Below are positions 16,626 to 63,483 of a stretch of 64,000 nucleotides of DNA, piece after piece. The notes beneath the pieces are model-generated. The model saw only the letters and a list, made by a program, of their open reading frames with translations, had not been told where the DNA came from and did not search any database. The stretch's first letter is position 1; each line of letters begins with the position of its first letter. The position numbers and the translations under genes were made by a program. Source of the DNA: Eledone cirrhosa (lineage: Eukaryota); assembly GCA_964016885.1 (NCBI GenBank), contig OZ024742.1, positions 92,504,001-92,568,000 on the forward strand. Reading direction: 5' to 3'.

Positions 16626-19600
16626 AAGCAACTTCAACAACCAACTCTCACAAACAATAACAATACTAGCAACTTCAACAACCAGCTCTCACAAACAATA
16701 TCAATACTAGCAACTTCAACAACCAACTCTCACAAACAATATTAATACTAGCAACTTCAACAACCAACTCTCACAAACAATATCAATACTAGCAACTTCA
16801 ACAACCAGCTCTCACAAACAATATCAATACTAGCAACTTCAACAACTCACTCTCACAAACAATATCAATACTAGCAACTTCAACAACCAGCTCTCACAAA
16901 CAATATTAATACTAGCAACTTCAACAACCAGCTCTCACAAACAATATCAATACTAGCAACTTCAACAACCAGCTCTCACAAACAATATTAATACTAGCAA
17001 CTTCAACAACCAGCTCTCACAAACAATATCAATACTAGCAACTTCAACAACCAGCTCTCACAAACAATATCAATACTAGCAACTTCAACAACCAGCTCTC
17101 ACAAACAATATCAATACTAGCAACTTCAACAACCAGCTCTCACAAACAATATCAATACTAGCAACTTCAACAACTCACTCTCACAAACAATATTAATACT
17201 AGCAACTTCAACAACCAACTCTCACAAACAATATTAATACTAGCAACTTCAACAACCAGCTCTCACAAACAATATCAATACTAGCAACTTCAACAATCAG
17301 CTCTCACAAACAATATCAATACTAGCAACTTCAACAACCAGCTCTCACAAACAATATCAATACTAGCAACTTCAACAACCAACTCTCACAAACAATATCA
17401 ATACTAGCAACTTCAACAACCAACTCTCACAAACAATATCAATACTAGCAACTTCAACAACCAGCTCTCACAAACAATATTAATACTAGCAACTTCAACA
17501 ACCAACTCTCACAAACAATATTAATACTAGCAACTTCAACAACCAACTCTCACAAACAATATCAATACTAGCAACTTCAACAACTCACTCTCACAAACAA
17601 TATCAATACTAGCAACTTCAACAACCAGCTCTCACAAACAATATCAATACTAGCAACTTCAACAACCAGCTCTCACAAACAATATCAATACTAGCAACTT
17701 CAACAACCAGCTCTCACAAACAATATCAATACTAGCAACTTCAACAACCAGCTCTCACAAACAATATCAATACTAGCAACTTCAACAACCAGCTCTCACA
17801 AACAATATCAATACTAGCAACTTCAACAACCAACTCTCACAAACAATATCAATACTAGCAACTTCAACAACCAACTCTCACAAACAATATCAATACTAGC
17901 AACTTCAACAACCAGCTCTCACAAACAATATCAATACTAGCAACTTCAACAACCAGCTCTCACAAACAATATCAATACTAGCAACTTCAACAACCAGCTC
18001 TCACAAACAATATCAATACTAGCAACTTCAACAACCAACTCTCACAAACAATATCAATACTAGCAACTTCAACAACCAACTCTCACAAACAATATCAATA
18101 CTAGCAACTTCAACAACCAGCTCTCACAAACAATATTAATACTAGCAACTTCAACAACCAACTCTCACAAACAATATCAATACTAGCAACTTCAACAACT
18201 CACTCTCACAAACAATATCAATACTAGCAACTTCAACAACTCACTCTCACAAACAATATTAATACTAGCAACTTCAACAACCAGCTCTCACAAACAATAT
18301 CAATACTAGCAACTTCAACAACCAACTCTCACAAACAATATCAATACTAGCAACTTCAACAACCAGCTCTCACAAACAATATTAATACTAGCAACTTCAA
18401 CAACCAACTCTCACAAACAATATCAATACTAGCAACTTCAACAACCAGCTCTCACAAACAATATTAATACTAGCAACTTCAACAACCAGCTCTCACAAAC
18501 AATATCAATACTAGCAACTTCAACAACCAGCTCTCACAAACAATATTAATACTAGCAACTTCAACAACCAGCTCTCACAAACAATATCAATACTAGCAAC
18601 TTCAACAACCAACTCTCACAAACAATATCAATACTAGCAACTTCAACAACCAGCTCTCACAAGCAATATCAATACTAGCAACTTCAACAACCAACTCTCA
18701 CAAACAATATTAATACTAGCAACTTCAACAACCAGCTCTCACAAACAATATCAATACTAGCAACTTCAACAACCAGCTCTCACAAACAATATTAATACTA
18801 GCAACTTCAACAACCAGCTCTCACAAACAATATCAATACTAGCAACTTCAACAACTCACTCTCACAAACAATATTAATACTAGCAACTTCAACAACCAGC
18901 TCTCACAAACAATATCAATACTAGCAACTTCAACAACTCACTCTCACAAACAATATCAATACTAGCAACTTCAACAACCAACTCTCACAAACAATATCAA
19001 TACTAGCAACTTCAACAACTAACTCTCACAAACAATATCAATACTAGCAACTTCAACAACCAGCTCTCACAAACAATATCAATACTAGCAACTTCAACAA
19101 CCAGCTCTCACAAACAATATTAATACTAGCAACTTCAACAACCAGCTCTCACAAACAATATCAATACTAGCAACTTCAACAATCAGCTCTCACAAACAAT
19201 ATCAATACTAGCAACTTCAACAACCAGCTCTCACAAACAATATCAATACTAGCAACTTCAACAACCAACTCTCACAAACAATATCAATACTAGCAACTTC
19301 AACAACCAACTCTCACAAACAATATCAATACTAGCAACTTCAACAACCAGCTCTCACAAACAATATCAATACTAGCAACTTCAACAACCAACTCTCACAA
19401 ACAATATCAATACTAGCAACTTCAACAACCAGCTCTCACAAACAATATTAATACTAGCAACTTCAACAACCAACTCTCACAAACAATATCAATACTAGCA
19501 ACTTCAACAACCAACTCTCACAAACAATATCAATACTAGCAACTTCAACAACCAGCTCTCACAAACAATATCAATACTAGCAACTTCAACAACCAGCTCT

Positions 19601-19884
19601 CACAAACAATATCAATACTAGCAACTTCAACAACCAACTCTCACAAACAATATTAATACTAGCAACTTCAACAACCAACTCTCACAAGCAATATTAATAC
19701 TAGCAACTTCAACAACCAACTCTCACAAACAATATCAATACTAGCAACTTCAACAACCAACTCTCACAAACAATACCAATACTAGCAACTTCAACAACAA
19801 ACTCTCACAAACAATACCAATACTAGCAACTTCAACAACAAACTCTCACAAGCAATATTAATACTAGCAACTTCAACAACCAAT
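16626..19884. repeat. Minisatellite, 41-bp unit, ~79-80 copies, inside an STX5 intron
   Basis: Unit actagcaacttcaacaaccagctctcacaaacaatatcaat in tandem with few variant positions; no spacers. Confidence 0.98.
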
Positions 19885-20776
19885 TCTTGCAAGCAACGTT
19901 GAGTCCACTCTGGAGTAGAAATGACAGAACTGAAAGTGCGGTTGTGTTGTTCATGTTTCAAGAACACAAACGGCCACAAACGGCCACAAACTCAGAACTG
20001 CAATGCAATAAAACACTCATCAATTTTACTATGCTACCCCTACTAACATCAATGAGCTATGCTCCAAGTTCTGGTACCTATTTACAACTAGGTGGCCTGA
20101 CCAATGGACACAATGCCAAATGCCTAGATATCTCTCAATATTGTATGTATTGATTTGGCTGTTCTTTTTGTTTATCAATTAGGTAGGAGGTAGGGTAGAA
20201 CACATGACCATTTTCAGAACCTCCAAGACAGATTGGAAGGAAAGAGGTAGTTATCCTTAAAATTGAAACCTTATCCAAGTGCTTGCAAAAGAGCAAACTG
20301 TTTCAAAGCAGCTAAGAGACAGACAGAAGTGTTAAACAAGGTGATAGGATACAGGATTTGAATTCAGAATGTAAAGAGCTGGAATAAATACTGCAAAGCC
20401 TCCTATCCAATATTATAACCACGCTGTCAGTGCATTGCCCTAGGCTGGTTCTTTATCAACCTTTAAAGGACAGAAGGCAAAGTTGATCTTGCTGACAATT
20501 AAATGCAGAATGCAAAGCACTACAATGAATTACAAAAGTCATTTCATCTTGTGCTCTACTGCTTCTACCAGCTTCAGTGCAAATAAATACAACCACTACC
20601 ATCTCTCACAGTAAACTTTCTCAACAAACTTCTATCACAATTAACTCCAAACACAATTTTCTTCTTCAGCCTAACCTTTCCACTGATCTCCAGTTTTTTT
20701 AAATAAATTCTGGACAAATATAAAAGAACAAAATAAAGTAAGAGTGAAAGCTCCTTGACCAAAATCATAGACTGAC

Positions 20777-37640: not shown

Positions 37641-37972
37641 AATTAATAGTGATTTTAACCTTTCGGTCAGCGAAGAAATAAAGAAAGAAGGAAAAAATAC
37701 AGACAAATAAAAGGGGAGGGGGATAAAAAATTTGGTGTTATATTTAAAACTTAATTTTTCCCTATGAGAAAGTAAAGAAAAAGAGGAAAGGGGAAAAGGG
37801 GGGGAAAAGAGAAGAAAAAGAGGGAGAAACGGAGGAAGAAGAAAAAAGGAAGACTAGAATCAATGCGATGATTGCTTGGCCAACGAATCCCTTTTCAGTT
37901 ACGAATCAACCCAAACTATTTCGTTTCCAGCATCCTACAATACATCTGGCAAATTTCTTGCGATATGACATC

Positions 37973-38009
37973 ATGAAGAAACAGGACAGTTATTTCAATA
38001 ACTACCAAG
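37973..38009 (+). CDS. PIN-like nuclease gene, putative exon 1
   Basis: atcATG MKKQDSYFNNYQ+G|gtgaga; phase 1 matches the acceptor at 39077. Confidence 0.6.
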
Positions 38010-38045
38010 GTGAGACACACACACACAGTTATTAATCCTTTTGGG

Positions 38046-38214
38046 CAGTGCCGGATTTAGGACAAATGAGGTCCTGTGCTAGTTAAGTTATGAGGCCCCT
38101 TACTTGGGCCCTGAAGGGGCCTCGTAACTTTTGGGGGCTGGAAGATGCCCCCCATCCCGGTCGACGGGGCCCTGTGCTTAAGCACACCTAAGCATAATGG
38201 TCAATCCGGCATTG
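38046..38214. mobile_element. hAT-like MITE
   Basis: TIRs cagtgccggatt / aatccggcattg, internal ggggccc motifs; no clean TSD. Confidence 0.7.
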
Positions 38215-39076
38215 CTTCCGTGGTTAAAGCTTGACTCATACTTATTTAAATATGAGTCAAGCAACGCCTTCGAAAGAAATTTTGCTTGGTGGAACAGGAC
38301 TTGTTTCGATCCCAAAGAGAGTTTGAGAGGGTTATGGAGGTAGTCGTCAGGATTCTATCAGAACCGCTTGGATTCCCTACCAAGCTTATTGATGTTATCC
38401 AACCATCTTCGTCTACCTCGGGGTATCTCGCCAATGGGCTTTGCCTGTAAAACCTGGTCGTCGATTCTTTCCGACCGGAGTAAACCTATCCCGTGCACGT
38501 TGGAAATTACCTTCGGATTGAGTTAAGTAGCACAATATCGTCTGCTTCCAACTTCCTACTACACTCACAGATTTTGACACCATTTCTAACCCGGGTTTGC
38601 TTGTCAATCCTGTTCATGTATATGAACCAGAGAGGTGATACAACCTATTACAGGTTCCTTCGAACGCAGTTGTATGCCTTTTCGAGGTTTACAAAACAAG
38701 CATACACCCCTTGGCAATACTCCCACGATTTCTCGAAGACCCACCGTAGAGTGAATACCTGGTCGGCTGTGTTAGGTCAGGGGTGAAAATCACACTGTTC
38801 GACAATATCCCTACATCCTCTTTAGCAGGCACTCAATTTGTCTGAGTAGCTACTCTAAAATTCCTTACCATAGGTTTTGAAAACATCGATTTTTATACGC
38901 GAAGATCTCTAGATTATTATTCCATGTAAAAGCCCCAATCTTTCAATACATTTACAGGAATTAGTGTTATTCACAATACTTCAAAAGCTTATCCCTTATA
39001 TAGAGATGAAATTGAGATGCTTTTGGTTTGCTTGTTTGTTCTTTTTCATTGAACTTTAATGGTGGATATTTCCCAG

Positions 39077-39560
39077 GCCGTCATCAGCCAAGAGGAAGAA
39101 CCAGGCATCCTAATCTAAAAAGAAGAAATCGATCGAAATTTCAAAGAAGGAGAGTACATGATGTCAGAAAATTGCAGAAAGTTGCCATACCTCACCGCCC
39201 TTTCTACCAACGTTGGTCTGTCACTGGCTACAAACACCTACCACCGCGTCCCAACATATCACGATTGACACACCGAAGGTGGCAGCCGGTACGCGCCCGT
39301 GGAGGATTTGCTGTTATCAATAGAAGGCATAGTACACATTGCCCAAATCATCGCCGAGCGAATCCAGTCGCGTTCAGATCCAGACTTCATCATCGACGTT
39401 ATCGTCTGCTACCTTTGAAACATAAATTATCCAGGATGGATCACATTATATTTTGGGATATAGATAACTGGAGTCGTTTATTTGAAAAGCTGAAATTTTT
39501 CGTGCCCATTAATACCTTCGTATGGGGTTTCCATAGTACGATGTGGAACGAGCCAACCAG
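39077..39560 (+). CDS. PIN-like nuclease gene, exon 2 (Arg-rich region + PIN N-terminus)
   Basis: ttcccag|GRHQPRGRTR...KLSRMDHIIFWDIDNWSRLFEKLKFFVPINTFVWGFHSTMWNEPT(R)|gtaaag; cf. ZNF451 'THIVFVDFDNWSNFF...TFIWGFQ'. Confidence 0.85.
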
Positions 39561-40029
39561 GTAAAGCATTCCTATTACAGATTTCTAATTTCGAAGGGGT
39601 GTCATCCAAATAACGCAAGGCATTTAGGCAGACACCCCTTGCGTGATTTAGCTATGTCCCTTTATGTTGTTTTTGATGTCAACTTTGTTTTTCACCCTTT
39701 CGGAATCGATAAAATAAGTACCAATCAAGTACTTGATCGATATAACTGACCTCCCTAATGTAGTTGTAAATAAAGATGGGAAAATATATGCTATGAAATG
39801 TCAAGCGAAAACAGACAGGCAAGTTATTTATTTACGTGATTATACTGAACTGAATAGATGAGTGGAACAAAGTTGAGAAATACAGAAGAAATAAAATTGT
39901 CACCACATAGACGGATGGTGATTTTTGCTAATTCTCAGATCTTTAAGTCAAGAGTTCTTGAGCTCTTGAAGATCGCTGCGTTACATTATCTCATAGTTGC
40001 TGGTTAGAGTGAAATCGAATCCCTGGTCC

Positions 40030-40810
40030 AGGAGACGATCTATCAAGCTGGAGCGAGCTCTCTTCGAAGCCTGAATCCCAGTGCTGATTCTCCTTCCATC
40101 GCCTCCAGCGGTTTCCTGGTTAACCCAAACCTTACAAGGTGACTTGAGACTTCTGTTGCCGACACCACGATGTCAGCTACCACGACATCGTCGATATAGG
40201 AATTAGTGACCCTCTTCATCTTGTTCACCTTCCCAGAATGGCTTTGAGAACCGTCACCATGATTTTTAGTGCCAAATTCAACCCGAAATCCAGCTTGGTC
40301 AGACAGTATGTCTGGCCATTATACCTGACCAGCTCATACTTCCACAGTGGAAGTTTTTTCCGCAAACATCTGTGACCTCGCTGCCTGTGTGACACGATAA
40401 ATTCAGTTCACGAAAGTCCAGCACCAGCCTGACTTTGTTGTTGGTTGTACTCCTGCCACTACTGTCAACACTCTGCTCTTCCGAGAGATTAATATGTCTC
40501 TTTGCACCTCTTCTTCAAACTCGCTTCTAGCATCTCCTTTCAGGGTATGCTGATAGCAGTTCATTCTGTTCTTCAACGTCAGGGGCTCTCCTTTCCAGTA
40601 CCACTCAACTATCCACCACTGGCCGTCGAACAGAGCCCTGAAATCCTTGTCTTGTATGGTATAAACAGCACAATTTTCCTTCATGGATATCCCTGCTCCC
40701 CTGCTGCACACTCATGGTGCATAATGTTATGCTTCCTAAATAGCAGATCACATCCATATCAATACCATCCACTATGTGGTTGATCACGATCACCCACAGC
40801 CTTTTCATTC
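40030..40810 (-). mobile_element. Degenerate LTR-retrotransposon-like RT fragment in the PIN-gene intron
   Basis: 'YCLTKLDFGLNLA', 'SYIDDVVV', 'HLVRFGL...LGFRL' RT-type motifs with frameshifts. Confidence 0.6.
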
Positions 40811-41103
40811 CTCATACAGCCATCTCCACCTCATTCTGCATCTAATCTCTCTGCCGTTGACTGCTCTTAGATTATTCATTCAGCTTTTTAACCACCCCTG
40901 GGATCACTAATGTCTTTGTACAGCCAGTGTCCCTGTGGATTGGCAGTCGTTAGAGCAGTATTTGTTCTGGCTTCAAATCAGCTGAAGCCAACTTTGCCTT
41001 CATCTTTCCTAAGTCGATAAACTGATATAATTGGCATTTCCCCTTCCTTCTAGGAAAATTAGAACCTATGATTACACACACACACCTATAATTTTAATTT
41101 CAG

Positions 41104-41203
41104 GTGCCTGGCGTTCCACCGGCTGATAAATAGCGGGGGATTTCACAAGAATAATCAAAGTGGGAGGACGAAAAATGCAGCAGATTTTGCCATGATGCTT
41201 CAA
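41104..41203 (+). CDS. PIN-like nuclease gene, exon 3
   Basis: tttcag|(R)CLAFHRLINSGGFHKNNQSGRTKNAADFAMMLQ|gtgaga; cf. ZNF451 'KDAADFAICMH'. Confidence 0.9.
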
Positions 41204-42306
41204 GTGAGATGAAACCCGACTCACGGTTATTTTTTCGTTACTATTTTGTGATTACTATATGGACATACACCGTTTCCCAACTAATATGTATATTTTAATC
41301 TCTCTGTGGTACCAAGGGCACGTGTCTTCTACTATAGACTCGACCCAATCAAATTTGGAAGCACTGAGCTTCACAACTGAGTCCCATGTAGTTTTTCTTT
41401 TTTTGTATTTGCTTTGTTGATATATAGTCTGCATGCAAGCTGTGATGATGTAAGCACTGTGGTTTTTGTAGTTGTTTTTTGAAATGAGGACCAGTAAGGC
41501 CATGATGAAACTAATGTATTGTTTGAAACGATTGTACAGAATAAGATCTATGCAAATTATGGTATTTATTGGGCGATGATAGTAGAAAGTTATAGTGTTG
41601 GGCTGGTCATTGTAGAATGTGATGTGTAAATTGTTATATAGTATTGGCTGGTCGCTGTACAGAATATTGTATTGGGAAACATATATTGTTACAAATGGGC
41701 CCTTTTTAGTCGTGACTGTTTCTGGGTTTGCACCTGGAAAGTTTTGTGGAAGACTAGTAGTCATTAATACATGCCAGTTTTCTCTCTCTACACTACTAAT
41801 GTTGTCCAAGGGAAAAGGCATTGGCACTAGTGTCACTGCAACTTATTTCTTCCAGATGAAGTAGTTTAAAAACAACTATTTTTATACTCATATCCCATTA
41901 TGGATATTGTTGTGATTTGGTATTTCTTTCTTTGGAGTGATGATTTAGATGGAAGGGACAGAGATGGCTATCAGAGTACATAGGCTTTCCTGAGTGTTTG
42001 ATTATAATATCAACATAGTTCAATGTCAGTAAATTCACTTTTAATTGCATAATGCATTACAGTCCCAGACATTTTAGTCTGAAACTAAAGTTGTGACTAT
42101 AATCTCTGCATGTGTCCCTGCAAGTTGTTCATTTTTATTTATCCCTTTTGTTACCATTCTTAAACTAACGTTTAGAACATAAAATTTTCTTATAGAATTA
42201 TAATGGAAGGTTTTAAACATTTAAAAATAAATAAATAGCTCTGTATAAGAGAATGTGGGGTGATTTGGTATCAAGGGTTAAACTGATAAATTGTTTTTCT
42301 CCGTAG

Positions 42307-42489
42307 ATTGGCAAGATGGATGAGCTGCTTCCGAATCGTGTTCAGTTCACAATATTTTCTGGCGACAAAGGGTTTCAAGAAGCTATTCATCAAATGAAAG
42401 ATTCAAAAAGAATCATAAGAATTCTGAATCCACATATTCCTGGCTGGCAGTCAAGACTTCATCACATTTTGAACAACATCAACCCCTAA
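42307..42489 (+). CDS. PIN-like nuclease gene, last exon (TAA stop)
   Basis: tctccgtag|IGKMDELLPNRVQFTIFSGDKGFQEAIHQMKDSKRIIRILNPH...*; cf. ZNF451 'AGRLDEQLPKQIPFTILSGDQGF...ILNPH'. Confidence 0.9.
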   Translation: MGKMDELLPNRVQFTIFSGDKGFQEAIHQMKDSKRIIRILNPHIPGWQSRLHHILNNINP

Positions 42490-42899: not shown

Positions 42900-44600
42900 G
42901 TATGTTGTGTAATAAGGAACAAGATGGAGAGGAGCCTCAGCTAACAAATTATTCTGGGTAGGTGGTGTGGCATTCTGTTAGAAGAGAAATGAGTAGACAA
43001 GGTGATTGGGGTAGTCAGAGCAAGTGACAGAATCATTAAGCTTAGGCTAGCTCTAGATAGAATAGTGACATATGCACCAACAGTTGGGCTGTTAGCAGAT
43101 CTGAAGGACCACTTCTTTGAGGCCTTTATGCACACTACCGTGATTTTTTTGGACATGCATGACAACTCAGTGATGGCTTCAATGGAGAATATGGTACAAG
43201 AAACAAGGGGGATCATAGCTTCAGCAGTTTTGTGATTCAAACAAACTTATCTGCAACATCAGCCAACCAACTGATCACCCTCCAATCAAGCAATCATACA
43301 TGCCAAATAAATTATATTCTCATCAGAAATCAGGATAAACTGATTGTTGTAAATACAGAGATAGTCCCCAGTGAACAATATAACTTAGTAATTAGCAAAC
43401 TTAAAATTAACGACAAAGGGTAATTTGAAGGAAAAAAAAACATGATCACTCAGCTAGGGACAAATTCAGATAAAACCTGCTATTATAAGAGGAAAGAGGA
43501 GATAGAAACCTACAACATACAGGGAAAGTAGAGGTTCAATTTGCTGAAGACTAGACATGGTCTGTGGTTGGTGCAAGGCTCCAGGACAAAGGGTAACATG
43601 ATGGTGGAAGTATGGAACTATACCAAAAAGCAAGGAGGGAAGTTAGGTGCCAGGTGAAGTAAAAAGTAAAAAGTTTGCATGTGTCTTTAAGCTGTGAGTA
43701 CCAAAGGTGCCAGATGTTCCAGGTTGCAAGGCAGTGTTAGAGAAAAATCAAGACATAGTTGGTGAGAAGTTTATACAGGATGACAATGGTGAACTTGCTT
43801 TTACCGATGCAGAAAAGTAGTTTGGAATGTCATGAGAAACTGTATAAGCAAATAACCTTGTTCTTGTATATGAATATATATCAGAATTGGAACCAAAAAG
43901 ATCTCTAGTAAATAAAGAAGAGCACTGATCCCATCAATAAAATAGCTATGCACTGTATGCAGAAAAGGTGTTCAATATTGTATACAAAATGTATACTAGG
44001 CTAACAAAGAATGTAAACTTCAAATGTGGCAGATGCACAGGAGCAGTAGGCAGCAAGAATGCACATGAAACAGGTTCCATCAAATGCTCAGATGGCTCTC
44101 TAGAAATAGCTAGCACTTTATAGTACTTAGGTACCAATTAGTAGCGCAGGTGGGTGTTCAGAAAGCTGGGTGAGAATAGGTAAAAAGGTTCAGGGAGTTA
44201 CTTCCTTAGGTGGGACCAAAGGGGTTTCCTCAGAGTGAAAGGCATGATGCCTGTGCATGAACTGCAATACTGCATGGAAGTGAGATTGGGCACTGAAAGC
44301 TGAGGATATGCAAAGAGGAATTGAATCCAGTATACAAAAGAGAGAAGACTGTGTTGGTAGGCCATGTGATGCATATGAAGGGTGAAAGCTGCATGAAGAA
44401 ATGCTGGACACTAAGTTGAAGGAACCTGTGGAAGCGGAAAACCTAGAAAAATGTAGAATGAAGTGGTAAAGACAGACCTTAAAATGTTGGACCTCACGAT
44501 CGAGATGGTTGGCAATATGACATACTATAGAAGTCTTGTGTCCCTCCATAAGTAGGATAAAAGTCAGTAAGATATAACAGTTAGGATGCCCCATCCCTCT
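42900..44600 (+). mobile_element. Highly degenerate RTE LINE
   Basis: 'VVRASDRIIKLRL', 'YAPTVGL', 'QINYILIR'; patchy similarity to the RTE at 61-63 kb. Confidence 0.75.
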
Positions 44601-57610: not shown

Positions 57611-57766
57611 CTCTTATGTTTGGCTCGTTTCAGTGTGACTGTTGAGGAACATATGAGTGGAGTTAACTTATCCCGGATACTGTGGAATGTTCTCTCCATT
57701 TCTCTTTGGTATTCCTTTTGTTCAAATGTTATCAATGTCTTGTTTCTCTGTAAAGCATCCCAGCAT
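57611..57766 (-). CDS. DOCK7: DOCK-C family GEF exon (end of DHR-2)
   Basis: ctacag|(R)CWDALQRNKTLITFEQKEYQREMERTFHSIRDKLTPLICSSTVTLKRAKHK|gtaagt; cf. DOCK7 [27 protein letters not shown]. Confidence 0.95.
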
Positions 57767-57894
57767 CTGTAGAGTAGAAACAGAAAAACATGTATATATA
57801 ATCATATTGCCAAAATGTATGCATGTCAAACATTTTTCTGACCATTTCATCTATATTATATGTCCTGCTTGAAATATATAGCATTGATATAGTA

Positions 57895-59877: not shown

Positions 59878-60021
59878 CTGATTTACTGTTGTTCCAATGC
59901 AACCTTGTAGCACCATCTGTAGCATCTTGGGGTCAGGTGGTTCCTGAGTTAGTGCTAGCGCTAATTCTTTGGTCTTCTTTTGTATGTCTTCTATTGCTAC
60001 TTCAATAGGTGAAAGAATAAT
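59878..60021 (-). CDS. DOCK7: DOCK-C family GEF exon (DHR-2, nucleotide-sensor region); upstream exons not found in this window
   Basis: ttccag|[48 protein letters not shown]|gtatgg; near-identical to DOCK6/7/8 '[32 protein letters not shown]'. Confidence 0.97.
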
Positions 60022-60624: not shown

Positions 60625-63483
60625 CATCATCATCATCATCATCACCGTTTTACGTCCGTTCTTCCACGCTAGCATGGGTTAGACGGGTTGTCCTGTTGTG
60701 GGCAGTGTCTGGTCGGCTGACCATGCCTTGCTCATACAGGAACTGATCTGGCTTGATTTCTACAGCTGGATGCCCTTCCTAACACCAACCTCATTTACAG
60801 TGAGTGCTGGGTGCTTTTCCGTGGCGCCTACACGTCCACTTTACAGTGTGGGCTGGGTGCTTTTTTGCCGTGACACCTCCACGACCACCTTGCAGTGTGA
60901 GGGTGTGGGGGCATATTGTCTATATGCTTCAGCTTGTACCCATGGGAGGTCGGGTACTCTGTATTACTGCGTGACGCCAGAGGTCACGGTCGTGTGTCAT
61001 CGCCTTTGAGAGGTGTAATTGGGTAAGGTCGGCTTTTATCACCTCATCCCAGGTCATCTTGGGTCTCCCCACTCCGCGGTTTCCATCGACTTCTAGTGCT
61101 CTGCACCTTTTTATGCAGCTGTCATCCTTCATACGCATCACATGTCCATACCAACACAACCGCCTCTCCTGCACACAGCATTTGATTCCTCTTATGCTCA
61201 GTCTCTCTCTCAATTCATTTATGCTTTGTCGTTCGCTTATATTACTATTACACATCCATCAGAGCATGCAGGCTTCGTTTCTCTCTAATCTACGTAATTC
61301 TTCCACCTTCAGCGCCCAGATCTCACTACCATGTAACATTGCTGTTCGGATACACGCATCATACAATCTGCCTTTCATTTTGAGGGAGAAGCCTTTTGCA
61401 GCTAGCAGTGGCAGTAGTTCCCTGAACTTCTTCCATCCCATTCTTACCATAGTTATTGTATTTTCTGAACACCCACCTCCGCTGCTAATTCGGTCACCTA
61501 GGTAGCAGAAGCTGTCTACTGTCTCTACAGAGCCTTCCCAGAGATTGGTGGTACTTGTTTCCTGTGGCTGTTTGCTGCTTGCTGTCTCAGTACAGCTGCT
61601 GCATGTGAAGCCTACATTCTTAATTAAGCTTCCTAAGATCCCGCTACATCTCTTGTGTACCCATTGTTTGCATTTGGGGCAGAGAATGGAGTTCCTACCT
61701 ACACCTTTCCTACATACTGAGCAAGGCCATTTCCCTGAGGGGATCTGGGTTCTGTTTTCTCGTCTACTTACAAGGACCTTAGTCTTTGTCATGTTGACTT
61801 TGAGACCCTTTCTTTCTAGTCCCTGCTTCCAAGTTTGGAATTTCTTCTCTAGTTCTACCATAGATTCAGCTATAAGTGCGAGGTCATCAGCATACAGGAG
61901 TTTCCATGGGCATCCGGTCTTAAACTTCTCCGTTATTGCCTGCAGGACTATGATGAACAGGAGAGGGCTAAGAACAGAGCCCTGGTGGACACCAACCAGT
62001 ACGCTAAATTCCTCGCTATACTCATTGCTAATCCTAACTTTGCTGACTGCTCCCCTATACATGGCTTGTACAGCTTTCACAAGCCATTCATCTACTCCTA
62101 GTTTTCTAAGAGCCCACCAGATTATAGCACGTGGAACTCTGTCAAAGGCTTTCTCGAGATCGACAAATGCCAGGTAGAGTGGCTTACTTTTAGCTAGATA
62201 CTTTTCCTGTAACTGCCTCACAAGGAAGAGGGCATCAGTCGTGCCTCTTCCTGGTACAAACCCAAATTGCATCTCATCTAGTTTCACCTGGTCCCTAATC
62301 AACTGTGCTATAACTCTTTCTGTTACTTTCATGACCTGGTCCATCAGCTTTATACCTCTATAGTTTCCTCGATCGAGTGCATCACCTTTACCTTTGTAGC
62401 AGTTGACAATGATGCTACTGCACCAATCTTTTGGTATGACACCTTCTAGTATTACCTGGTTAACAATACGTGTGGTTATAGTGTGACCTACAGACCCAGA
62501 TGCCTTCAGCATCTCGGCAGCTATACCCGATGGACCGGTTGCCTTCCCCATCGTCATATCTTTGATTGCCTTACTACGCTGCTGCTTACTTGTACTGCTG
62601 GCCCCTCTATAGGGTCTACTTGGGGGTAGGGTCTCTTCTTCCCATGCATTCTCCTCATTTAGTAATCTATCATAATGACTCTTCCATGCATCTTTCTTCT
62701 CAGCACTTGTGAGGGCAAGCTCACCTTTATCATTCCGGATACATTTCTCTCCAATGACATCACAATTCTCTCTGACACACTTCCTCGCAACCTTGAACAC
62801 CTCCTGTTTCTGGTCCTCACGTTGCAAAACATGCTTGAATTTTCTATCCTCTGCTTCCCTCCTAGCTAAGTATACTTGTCGCCTCGCTTCCCTCTTGGTC
62901 TCTATGTAATGTACCCTGCTCCCCCCGTTCTTCCATTCTTTCCATGCCTGTCTCTTGGCCTTAACTGCCTCATCTACCTTATTGTTCCACCACCAAGTCA
63001 CTCTCCTCCTGCTTGTGGTCTTACTCCAGCCACAAACCTCATCCGTCGCCTCTAGTAAGTTATTTTTTAGGAACTCCCAGTGCTCTTCTACATTGAATGT
63101 CTCTATCTGTTCTTCTCTACTGTCGTAGGCGTTGAGTAAAATATCTTTAAATCTGTTACTGGCTGAGGGGTCTTTCAGCTTCCAGATCTTTCTTCTCCAG
63201 GCTGGCCTCTGTTTCCAGGTTCGTCTAGTTCTGACCGTGAGGTCGCTGACAACTAAGCTATGTTGGGAGGTACATTCCTCACAGGGAAGGCTTTTGTGTT
63301 TCCGACCGTCCATCTGTCACGTCCTCTATCTGACTAGAATGCTCCCCTGATCTATAGGTGATCAGGTGGTTGTCGGGTTTTTTGAAGTTTGTGTTACATA
63401 TCGACATGTCATTGGCGTCGCAGAATTCTAGAAGTCTAAATCGTTCTTCATTTCTTGTGCCAACCCCATGGCCTCCATGGACT
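60625..63483 (-). mobile_element. Young 5'-truncated RTE-clade LINE (partial APE, RT with internal PHD-like Zn finger, 3' UTR, (ATG)n tail) in a DOCK intron
   Basis: 684-aa ORF with YRGIKL, QFGFVPGRGTTDA, FVDLEKAFDRV, GVHQGSVLSPLLF, YADD, CSVC..CPKC..H..C..CSSC; one premature TGA at 61259-61261, after which the ORF continues to 60929. Confidence 0.95.

Follow-up and report, generated by a model that had tools for sequence, protein, structure and literature searches.

Structure of the gene and its orthologues

The window analyzed here, a 64-kb stretch of the Eledone cirrhosa genome, contains a four-exon gene on its forward strand encoding a 267-aa protein, in which a basic, Arg-rich N-terminal arm precedes a PIN-like domain. 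Coding exon 1 (37973..38009) runs from the ATG start codon for 12 codons plus 1 nt to a GT donor and aligns across the junction Gly with the N-termini of database proteins P0004 and P0003. Exon 2 (39077..39560; 57% identity to P0004 by tblastn) encodes arm residues 13–132 and the initial third of the PIN domain, which carries D140, D142, and N143; exon 3 (41104..41203) encodes the middle of the domain, with K197 and D201; and exon 4 (42307..42489) encodes its end, with S225, D227, E232, R242, P249, and H250, and the stop codon. Intron 1 (38010..39076, GT–AG) is in phase 1, intron 2 (39561..41103) in phase 2, and intron 3 (41204..42306) in phase 0. The AG/GT exon ends, the phases, and the coding length (804 nt, that is, 267 aa and a stop) bear out the model drawn in a first-pass annotation of this DNA. 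The motifs it quoted (W-D-I-D-N-W, TFVWGF, KNAADFA, FTIFSGDKGF, and ILNPH) begin at residues 139, 159, 197, 221, and 246, with only 17 residues between the last of them and the protein end. The first AATAAA 3′ of the stop codon (43306..43311, forward strand) is a candidate polyadenylation signal by pattern match only. A high-copy repeat lies in intron 1 near 38.0–38.8 kb, where summed contig depth reaches hundreds to thousands.

The gene is real, and its reading frame is intact. The Arg-rich frame of exon 2 has no stops, compared with five and nine in the other two frames. Among 72 stop-free frames of at least 120 aa in the window and its 60-kb flanks, a single one had at least 24 Arg and at most four acidic residues per 120 aa, and it was the arm of this gene. 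The exons were identical to contigs of runs X1–X3, which are DNA-like contigs from one sample, possibly the same source as the assembly, and contain no exon joints. A 1411-base Logan contig carries exons 1–3 as a single reading frame (protein P0003), implying that the transcript is spliced in a relative.

Orthologues are on record from Octopus bimaculoides (LOC106868266; XP_014768937.1, UniProt A0A0L8HW07), Octopus sinensis (XP_036361509.1), and Argonauta hians (GAB1600464.1). The O. bimaculoides protein is identical to ours at 113 of 135 PIN positions (84%) and 67 of 131 arm positions (51%). Decay of a duplicate, or an artefact of the gene model, would be consistent with a model known in E. 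cirrhosa from DNA alone, and with O. sinensis and A. hians records that hold the C-terminal half of the PIN domain only. We consider it very improbable, given a frame intact over four exons, the strong PIN identity, an arm that can be aligned at 43%–56% identity in three sequences, the four RefSeq isoforms of O. bimaculoides, and the spliced-looking Logan contig.

A complete PIN_11 domain

A profile search, proposed in the first-pass annotation as a check on the PIN fold, recovered a complete PIN_11 domain (PF18479). The three PIN exons matched the 118-position profile in order, at 2–43 (E = 6.7e-9), 48–78 (E = 5e-4), and 80–118 (E = 1.2e-10), and two of the three exceeded the PIN_11 cut-off singly. 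The orthologue gave a full match (profile 2–118) of 128.6 bits, well above the curated gathering score of 26.6, so that the identification of the domain as ZNF451-type held.

The predicted active site of PIN_11 holds at least four conserved Asp (PMC5499597). D140, D142, D201, and D227 are all present in the window protein, as are N143, S225, and E232. The full set of D140, D142, N143, D201, and D227 is likewise found in 111 of 121 aligned PIN_11 domains, and the D/D/N/D/S/D set is conserved at 96%–99% per column in these 121 domains, which range from sponge to vertebrate-like sequences. A zinc loop of conserved Cys and His was also put forward for PIN_11, as a suggestion (PMC5499597). At the two positions concerned, the family has His in 51% (190) and Cys in 62% (193) of sequences, and the window protein has Asn and Ser; Cys175 and His250 are kept.

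A paralogue of ZNF451

We found two PIN_11 loci in the genome (G000), on contigs C3 and C9. The C9 gene is the ordinary ZNF451: It begins with a SIM-like motif and encodes C2H2 fingers (zf-C2H2, E = 9e-4). Within the PIN domain, it shares with the window gene introns at the same positions and in the same phases (2 and 0, the two ends of our exon 3), 71% DNA identity over 130 nt of the last exon, Ser193, and 65 of 129 PIN residues. By these sequence comparisons, the window gene is a paralogue of ZNF451 that has been conserved, and it is distinct from the ordinary ZNF451 gene. The name "E3 SUMO-protein ligase ZNF451," given by RefSeq to three of four isoforms from O. bimaculoides, could be taken to mean that the window gene is itself the ordinary orthologue of ZNF451, with its finger exons farther 5′. 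The chance of this is negligible in our view: A separate fingered gene exists on C9, a strict C2H2 pattern has no site in any of the six frames of the 64-kb window, and the orthologues begin at the same exon 1.

In a tree of 34 rows, in which the taxa of four rows (P0010, P0012, P0015, and P0003) were assigned by similarity only, the window protein and four orthologues form a clade (support 100/100), which groups in turn with the C9 gene and the fingered proteins nearest to it (support 95/91). The stem of the octopus clade is long (0.92) and its tips are short (0–0.22), as expected from change after duplication followed by constraint. The paralogue very probably arose by DNA-level duplication within cephalopods. 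The copied part would have been the 3′ exons of ZNF451, and the window gene is thus a likely example of a new octopod gene formed from a partial copy that gained a new N-terminus. No squid or cuttlefish orthologue was recognized among the best 150 of 165 matches (names were looked up for 20, with an organism given for nine). A metagenome scan confirmed none of 93 candidate stretches, and a word-based search for longer homologues confirmed none of 16 candidates, a weak negative since the HMMER scan gave many matches.

The orthologue records are products of automatic annotation. The orthologue is already annotated in RefSeq and UniProt under ZNF451 names and is undescribed in the literature searched, where no paper mentioned the locus id LOC106868266 or an octopus ZNF451 in this sense. 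Neither ZNF451 nor the accession was found in the supplement of an O. sinensis gonad paper (PMC11202624; one file, without a per-gene expression table) or in that of a paper on cephalopod C2H2 genes (PMC12513265; two files).

Fingerless PIN_11 proteins are widespread

Like ZNF451/ZATT, the window protein ends in a PIN-like domain with conserved acidic residues. In ZNF451/ZATT, this domain is accompanied by a SIM and C2H2 fingers, in whose place the window protein has the 132-aa Arg-rich arm. ZATT also carries a TOP2-binding coiled coil and a C-terminal UIM, according to a preprint (bioRxiv 2026.07.14.738426). The fingerless state claimed for the window gene was upheld: In addition to the empty C2H2 scan, a Pfam search returned no finger family in the gene. 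The arm contains no hydrophobic-acidic SIM; a loose pattern had one match, which lacked an acidic flank, and none in two orthologues. The window protein is not expected to act as a SUMO E3 ligase, and the database label is wrong for its architecture.

The lack of fingers is shared by 46 of 78 other full-domain PIN_11 proteins. Named cases come from a sponge (Oscarella XP_065844481.1), octocorals (Xenia XP_046856494.1 and Paramuricea CAB4026341.1), a rotifer (Adineta CAF1412281.1), and a bivalve (Dreissena XP_052251597.1), all with a C-terminal PIN_11 domain and no C2H2 pattern before it. Those other fingerless proteins that were placed in trees fall outside the octopus clade. The "stand-alone" state is therefore not special. 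The first-pass annotation had allowed that the same architecture might already be common and annotated across metazoans, and this turned out to be so for the stand-alone domain but not for the basic arm.

The arginine-rich arm

Recounting residues 13–132 gave the claimed 29 Arg, seven Lys, and one acidic residue; the whole arm (1–132) has 29 Arg, nine Lys, 12 His, and two Asp, along with 12 aromatic residues, 11 Pro, and one Cys. All three full octopus arms seen were basic (R+K 25%–32%, two to three acidic residues), and the corresponding whole proteins have a net charge of +34 to +50 and a pI of 11.9–12.0. Arg content was 22%–25% in octopus arms versus at most 13% in the N-termini of other fingerless PIN_11 proteins, and net basic excess was 27%–30% versus at most 12%; the N-termini of those other proteins are mixed in charge. 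As judged from composition, it is the basic arm, unlike the fingerless state, that sets the octopus protein apart from other PIN_11 proteins, and the arm is restricted to this lineage, in line with the lineage specificity first suggested for the gene.

The arm contains conserved motifs and changes faster than the PIN domain. A Pfam scan found no domain in it (LOTUS and RRM were absent), a comparison with the ESM Atlas gave no usable match, and the arm is single-copy in the genome. Comparison with three frames of the parental PIN exon, with the parental basic exon, and at the DNA level gave no match above 200 shuffles. The C9 parent gene has a K/R/S-rich exon of its own (48 of 170 residues basic), so that a basic segment has some precedent there.

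We considered whether the protein might act in spermiogenesis, with a transition- or protamine-like arm, perhaps cleaved off, and a PIN domain that clears RNA or nicks DNA during sperm chromatin condensation. Protamines consist of about 30% Arg or more. With protamines and protamine-like sperm nuclear basic proteins, the arm shares a high pI, richness in Arg, His, and Lys, and near-zero acidic content; its fast evolution relative to the PIN domain also fits. It differs from them in its lower Arg content (22%), a longest Arg run of three, many aromatic residues, and the attached folded domain, and its 11 Pro and alignable motifs speak against the idea as well. We know of no precedent for a PIN domain fused to a sperm basic protein. 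In PMC12216123, invertebrate protamines are described as cut from precursors and protamine-like proteins as mixing Lys, His, and Arg; the same paper defines protamines by Arg clusters, a pI of 12 or more, and a mature size of 30–106 aa, and cautions that richness in Arg is not enough to call a protein a protamine. The window protein has a pI of 11.9 and a 132-aa arm fused to a domain. Of the term "protamine-like," the high pI and scarcity of acidic residues stand, and the Arg content, short runs, and 12 aromatics do not, so that the arm is only loosely protamine-like; a composition of this looser kind is possible. We regard the spermiogenesis explanation as unlikely.

Fold and predicted active site

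The AlphaFold model of the orthologue was confident over the PIN domain (pLDDT 93–98) and low over the arm (53–60); a single-sequence model (pLDDT 37) was set aside. The best structural match of the orthologue model among 48,161 chains (VIA) was the NYN endoribonuclease domain of mouse MARF1 (PDB 5yaa; Z 8.8, rmsd 4.0, 122 aligned), a modest match given that the next, unrelated row had a Z of 7.9; VPA0982 (2qip) had 7.0. With Foldseek, MARF1 and 2qip came in at ranks 7–8, and no match had an E of 0.001 or below. In a sequence search of solved structures, the single protein had no match, and the profile picked up only low-complexity noise. The NYN fold originally proposed, in PIN_11 a minimized variant of the PIN fold, is thus supported by a confident model and by its top match, with a modest margin over unrelated rows.

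MARF1 NYN, VPA0982, and the window protein have in common an Asp after strand 1, an Asn three residues on, an Asp at the start of a helix, and Ser-x-Asp after strand 4. Identity to MARF1 NYN is 14%, LOTUS/RRM domains are found on the MARF1 side only, and activity of the window protein is a prediction. As described in PMC6217404, mouse MARF1 NYN is an RNase that requires an attached RNA-binding domain; of its four Asp, three come at the end of strands 1, 2, and 4, that of strand 2 (D215) being required, and one where helix 3 begins. When placed by secondary structure rather than superposition, three of the four have counterparts in the window protein; the place of D215 is taken by F164-H165-S166, and Asp or Glu occurs there in at most 4% of the 121 family rows. 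Of the claim that acidic residues occupy the PIN/NYN metal site, the conserved set is intact, and the strand-2 Asp of MARF1 lacks a counterpart.

The missing strand-2 Asp also fits a non-catalytic adaptor or decoy, in which the PIN domain binds protein, the arm tethers it to chromatin, and the whole competes with or modulates full-length ZNF451. PIN_11 has been called a potential active nuclease (PMC5499597), and the one activity reported for the human ZNF451 PIN is p300 binding (cited in the same paper). In bioRxiv 2026.07.14.738426, base-editing guides in the human PIN confer etoposide sensitivity, which ties the domain to protein-DNA repair without showing catalysis, and deletion of PIN and UIM impairs ZATT only modestly in frog extracts. 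Our literature searches found no report of nuclease activity for any PIN_11. Against a mere adaptor stands the retention of the D/D/N/D/S/D set, both throughout the family and along the long post-duplication branch, a pattern typical of an active site. We think an adaptor has a small but real chance, somewhat better than that of a spermiogenesis protein.

Proposed role

The reading we prefer, about evenly balanced in our estimation, is that this ZNF451 paralogue, formed by partial duplication and composed of arm and PIN_11, acts as a small metal-dependent ribonuclease held on nucleic acid by its arm. The basic arm would tether the nuclease to nucleic acid, substituting for the lost zinc fingers. 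Its binding to RNA or DNA is probably charge-driven and not sequence-specific, and the arm probably directs the protein to the nucleus, nucleolus, or RNA granules. D140, D142, D201, and D227 may well, with no better than an even chance, bind a divalent ion in an exposed NYN-type site that is predicted to cut single-stranded RNA.

ZNF451/ZATT is a human TOP2-repair factor, and the enzymatic nature of its PIN-like domain, reportedly predicted as a nuclease in 2017, is at stake. The octopus gene has lost all other ZNF451 modules and keeps the acidic pocket under constraint, which is an argument for an independent function of the domain. It encodes a small protein suited to a PIN_11 activity assay, for which the human domain or many other fingerless PIN_11 proteins would also serve.

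Expression mainly in the germline or testis is a tentative suggestion that we rate below even, and the germline or RNA-surveillance role first proposed for the gene is likewise conjectural. A still more specific and rather improbable extension is an octopod-specific germline nuclease, in which the ZNF451 PIN, freed from the SUMO-ligase body and given a transition-protein-like arm, would degrade RNA on spermatid chromatin or in RNA granules, with conserved splice forms that lack half of the active site as a putative off switch. If true, this would make it the first PIN_11 whose nuclease role has been demonstrated, and a counterpart of MARF1 on the male side. In several database isoforms, half of the active site is absent. 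Read-through of intron 3 in the window gene adds two residues before a stop, an ending identical to that of database proteins P0003 and P0005, and an AATAAA lies within this intron at 42226.

A PIN_11 gene in addition to an ordinary ZNF451

All four exons proposed in the first-pass annotation (window 37973..42489, plus strand) are present, with canonical splice ends and agreeing phases (1, 2, and 0), and their translation gives 267 aa. The motifs quoted there begin at residues 139, 159, 197, 221, and 246. Residues 13–132 of the N-terminal arm (residues 1–132) hold 29 Arg, seven Lys, and one acidic residue, an Asp. Exon 2 is open in the Arg-rich frame only; among 72 long stop-free frames in 124 kb, no other had such a composition. 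Scanned singly, exons 2, 3, and 4 span the Pfam PIN_11 profile in order, bearing out the ZNF451-type PIN domain. A three-codon upstream ORF (window 37965–37976) ends in a stop that overlaps the start codon.

We searched the genome (3.0 Gb, including the window's contig, C3) for PIN_11 and obtained five matches at two loci, on C3 and on a second contig, C9. The genome's ordinary ZNF451 is the C9 gene, which starts with a SIM-like motif (our own reading), has a basic K/R/S-rich exon terminating in a C2H2 finger, and corresponds exon for exon to a fingered protein of 695 aa. A strict C2H2 pattern had no site in the window, upholding the description of the window gene as fingerless. Its product is a PIN_11 member and not the ZNF451 SUMO ligase; that it is plain ZNF451 is exceedingly improbable. 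A long K/R/S-rich exon of the C9 gene (L011:8053–9099) contains short tandem repeats and Ser-Pro-Arg-type motifs, and two close relatives (P0012 and P0015) carry basic segments at the same place.

The two PIN domains share 65/129 residues and have phase-2 and phase-0 introns at the same positions, with a middle PIN exon of 97 nt in the C9 gene versus 100 nt in the window gene. The common introns rule out a retrocopy and point to a DNA-level duplication of the ZNF451 3′ exons. The arm is single-copy in the genome and aligned to the C9 ZNF451 exons no better than shuffles did, so it is either new or too diverged to recognize.

Orthologs and phylogeny

The nearest named homologs come from octopuses. 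An ortholog is already in databases, but we found no description of it in the literature searched. Octopus bimaculoides XP_014768937.1, at 275 aa, is built the same way, with identities of 113/135 in the PIN and 67/131 in the arm; that the window gene is a decaying duplicate is very unlikely. On a 1411-base Logan contig, exons 1–3 run as a single frame encoding an unnamed 210-aa protein (P0003), implying that a spliced transcript exists in a relative. Records from O. sinensis and Argonauta hians contain the C-terminal half of the PIN.

A careful tree was built from 34 selected domains (126 columns, three rows partial, taxa of unnamed rows inferred). In it, the window protein and its orthologs formed a five-row clade (support 100/100) that grouped with the C9 ZNF451 and three fingered relatives (95/91). 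The stem of the octopus paralog clade was long and its tips were short, and the grouping recurred in a quick 102-row tree (support 89).

The putative nuclease site

The acidic residues at the predicted metal site (D140, D142, D201, and D227) are kept as claimed; together with N143, they also occur in 111 of 121 aligned domains. Built on 74 sequences, the AlphaFold model of the ortholog was confident in the PIN; the arm, for which the alignment has little depth, came out structureless. Its best structural match was the NYN domain of the RNase MARF1 (Z 8.8, rmsd 4.0, 122 residues), with a Z margin of 0.9 over the next unrelated row; Foldseek gave no match at E 0.001 or better. According to PMC6217404, mouse MARF1 requires D178, D215, D246, and D272 plus a LOTUS RNA-binding domain, and PMC6294520 names D358, D426, D427, and D452 in human MARF1 instead. 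The strand-2 position is acidic in mouse MARF1 but non-acidic across the PIN_11 family, indicating a predicted site that is NYN-like yet not identical. Judged by the four Asp of MARF1, the window protein falls short; at best it would work in a MARF1-like way.

In the most likely reading, to which we give roughly even chances, the duplicated PIN_11 would cleave RNA in a metal-dependent manner and the arm would act as a charge-based tether replacing the zinc fingers. A non-catalytic adaptor is somewhat unlikely. In PMC5499597, PIN_11 is described as a potentially active nuclease whose function is unknown, and binding to p300 is cited. In a 2026 preprint (bioRxiv 2026.07.14.738426), guides in the PIN make cells etoposide-sensitive, while a PIN-plus-UIM deletion has only a modest effect in extracts. 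We found no activity test of PIN_11 in the literature searched.

Database forms without half of the active site are recurrent. P0003 and P0005 end by read-through into intron 3, which the window donor also permits. In two others, O. bimaculoides X4 and the model from O. sinensis, the arm is translated in the +1 frame (46/46 and 42/46 residues compatible; shuffles ≤20) before the join to exon 3; window exon 2 contains stops in that frame. These half-site isoforms may reflect regulation or splicing noise. RefSeq isoforms P0168, P0169, and P0006 have an acidic N-terminus that comes from reading the Arg-rich arm in its +1 frame.

Fingerless architectures and the Arg-rich arm

We surveyed PIN_11 with HMMER over 1.84 billion representatives (165 matches, 150 listed). 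Of 185 proteins compared, 117 covered 85% or more of a PIN profile. Once 22 near-duplicate domain rows had been removed, 80 proteins began with Met and had no fewer than 60 residues ahead of the PIN, and these made up the architecture set. The C2H2 pattern was absent in 46 of the 78 proteins other than the window protein and its ortholog, an upper estimate given the strict pattern and possible fragments; 22 of the 46 are ≤350 aa. Even so, fingerless PIN_11 is a recurrent form, as named genome records from a sponge, two octocorals, a rotifer, and a bivalve attest. Of the stand-alone, basic-armed architecture, fingerlessness is shared and the arm is distinctive: Arg makes up 22%–25% of the residues before the PIN in the window protein and ortholog versus ≤13% in the other 78, and net basic excess is 27%–30% versus ≤12%. 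A Dreissena protein has two PIN_11 copies. PIN_11-like domains in the sponge Oscarella and, more weakly, the green alga Cymbomonas (E 1.4e-5) fall outside the Eumetazoa, the range stated in PMC5499597.

The parent ZNF451 has a basic segment of its own. An Arg content of about 30% or more is a mark of protamines. The arm is 22% Arg with Arg runs of at most three, contains 12 His, 11 Pro, and 12 aromatic residues, and has motifs that can be aligned. It fits the proposed protamine likeness (compared with PMC12216123) less well than a basic, likely disordered segment for nucleic-acid binding and localization. A spermiogenesis protein, which would partly overlap the RNase reading, is rather improbable.

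Neighboring elements

The 3′ exons of a DOCK-family gene (window 57658–57777 and 59878–59964, minus strand; DHR-2 lobe C matches and frames) run toward the PIN gene and offer a useful synteny marker. The terminal exon of the DOCK-family gene was not recognized. A LINE-type element with a 685-aa frame (window 61259–63316, minus strand) encodes a reverse transcriptase domain and a PHD-like finger. Window 17000–20000 is strongly skewed between strands (GC skew about −0.77, AT skew +0.37) and is probably a simple repeat array. On C9, a VWC-domain exon (L011:4261–4665, minus strand; VWC E 2e-6) with a signal-peptide-like start lies between the first two recognized ZNF451 exons, on the opposite strand, and is likely a nested gene. 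Upstream of ZNF451 we saw frames that we take to be a HECT-ligase-like exon (L017:8114–8719) and Helitron-like helicase fragments (L012–L013).
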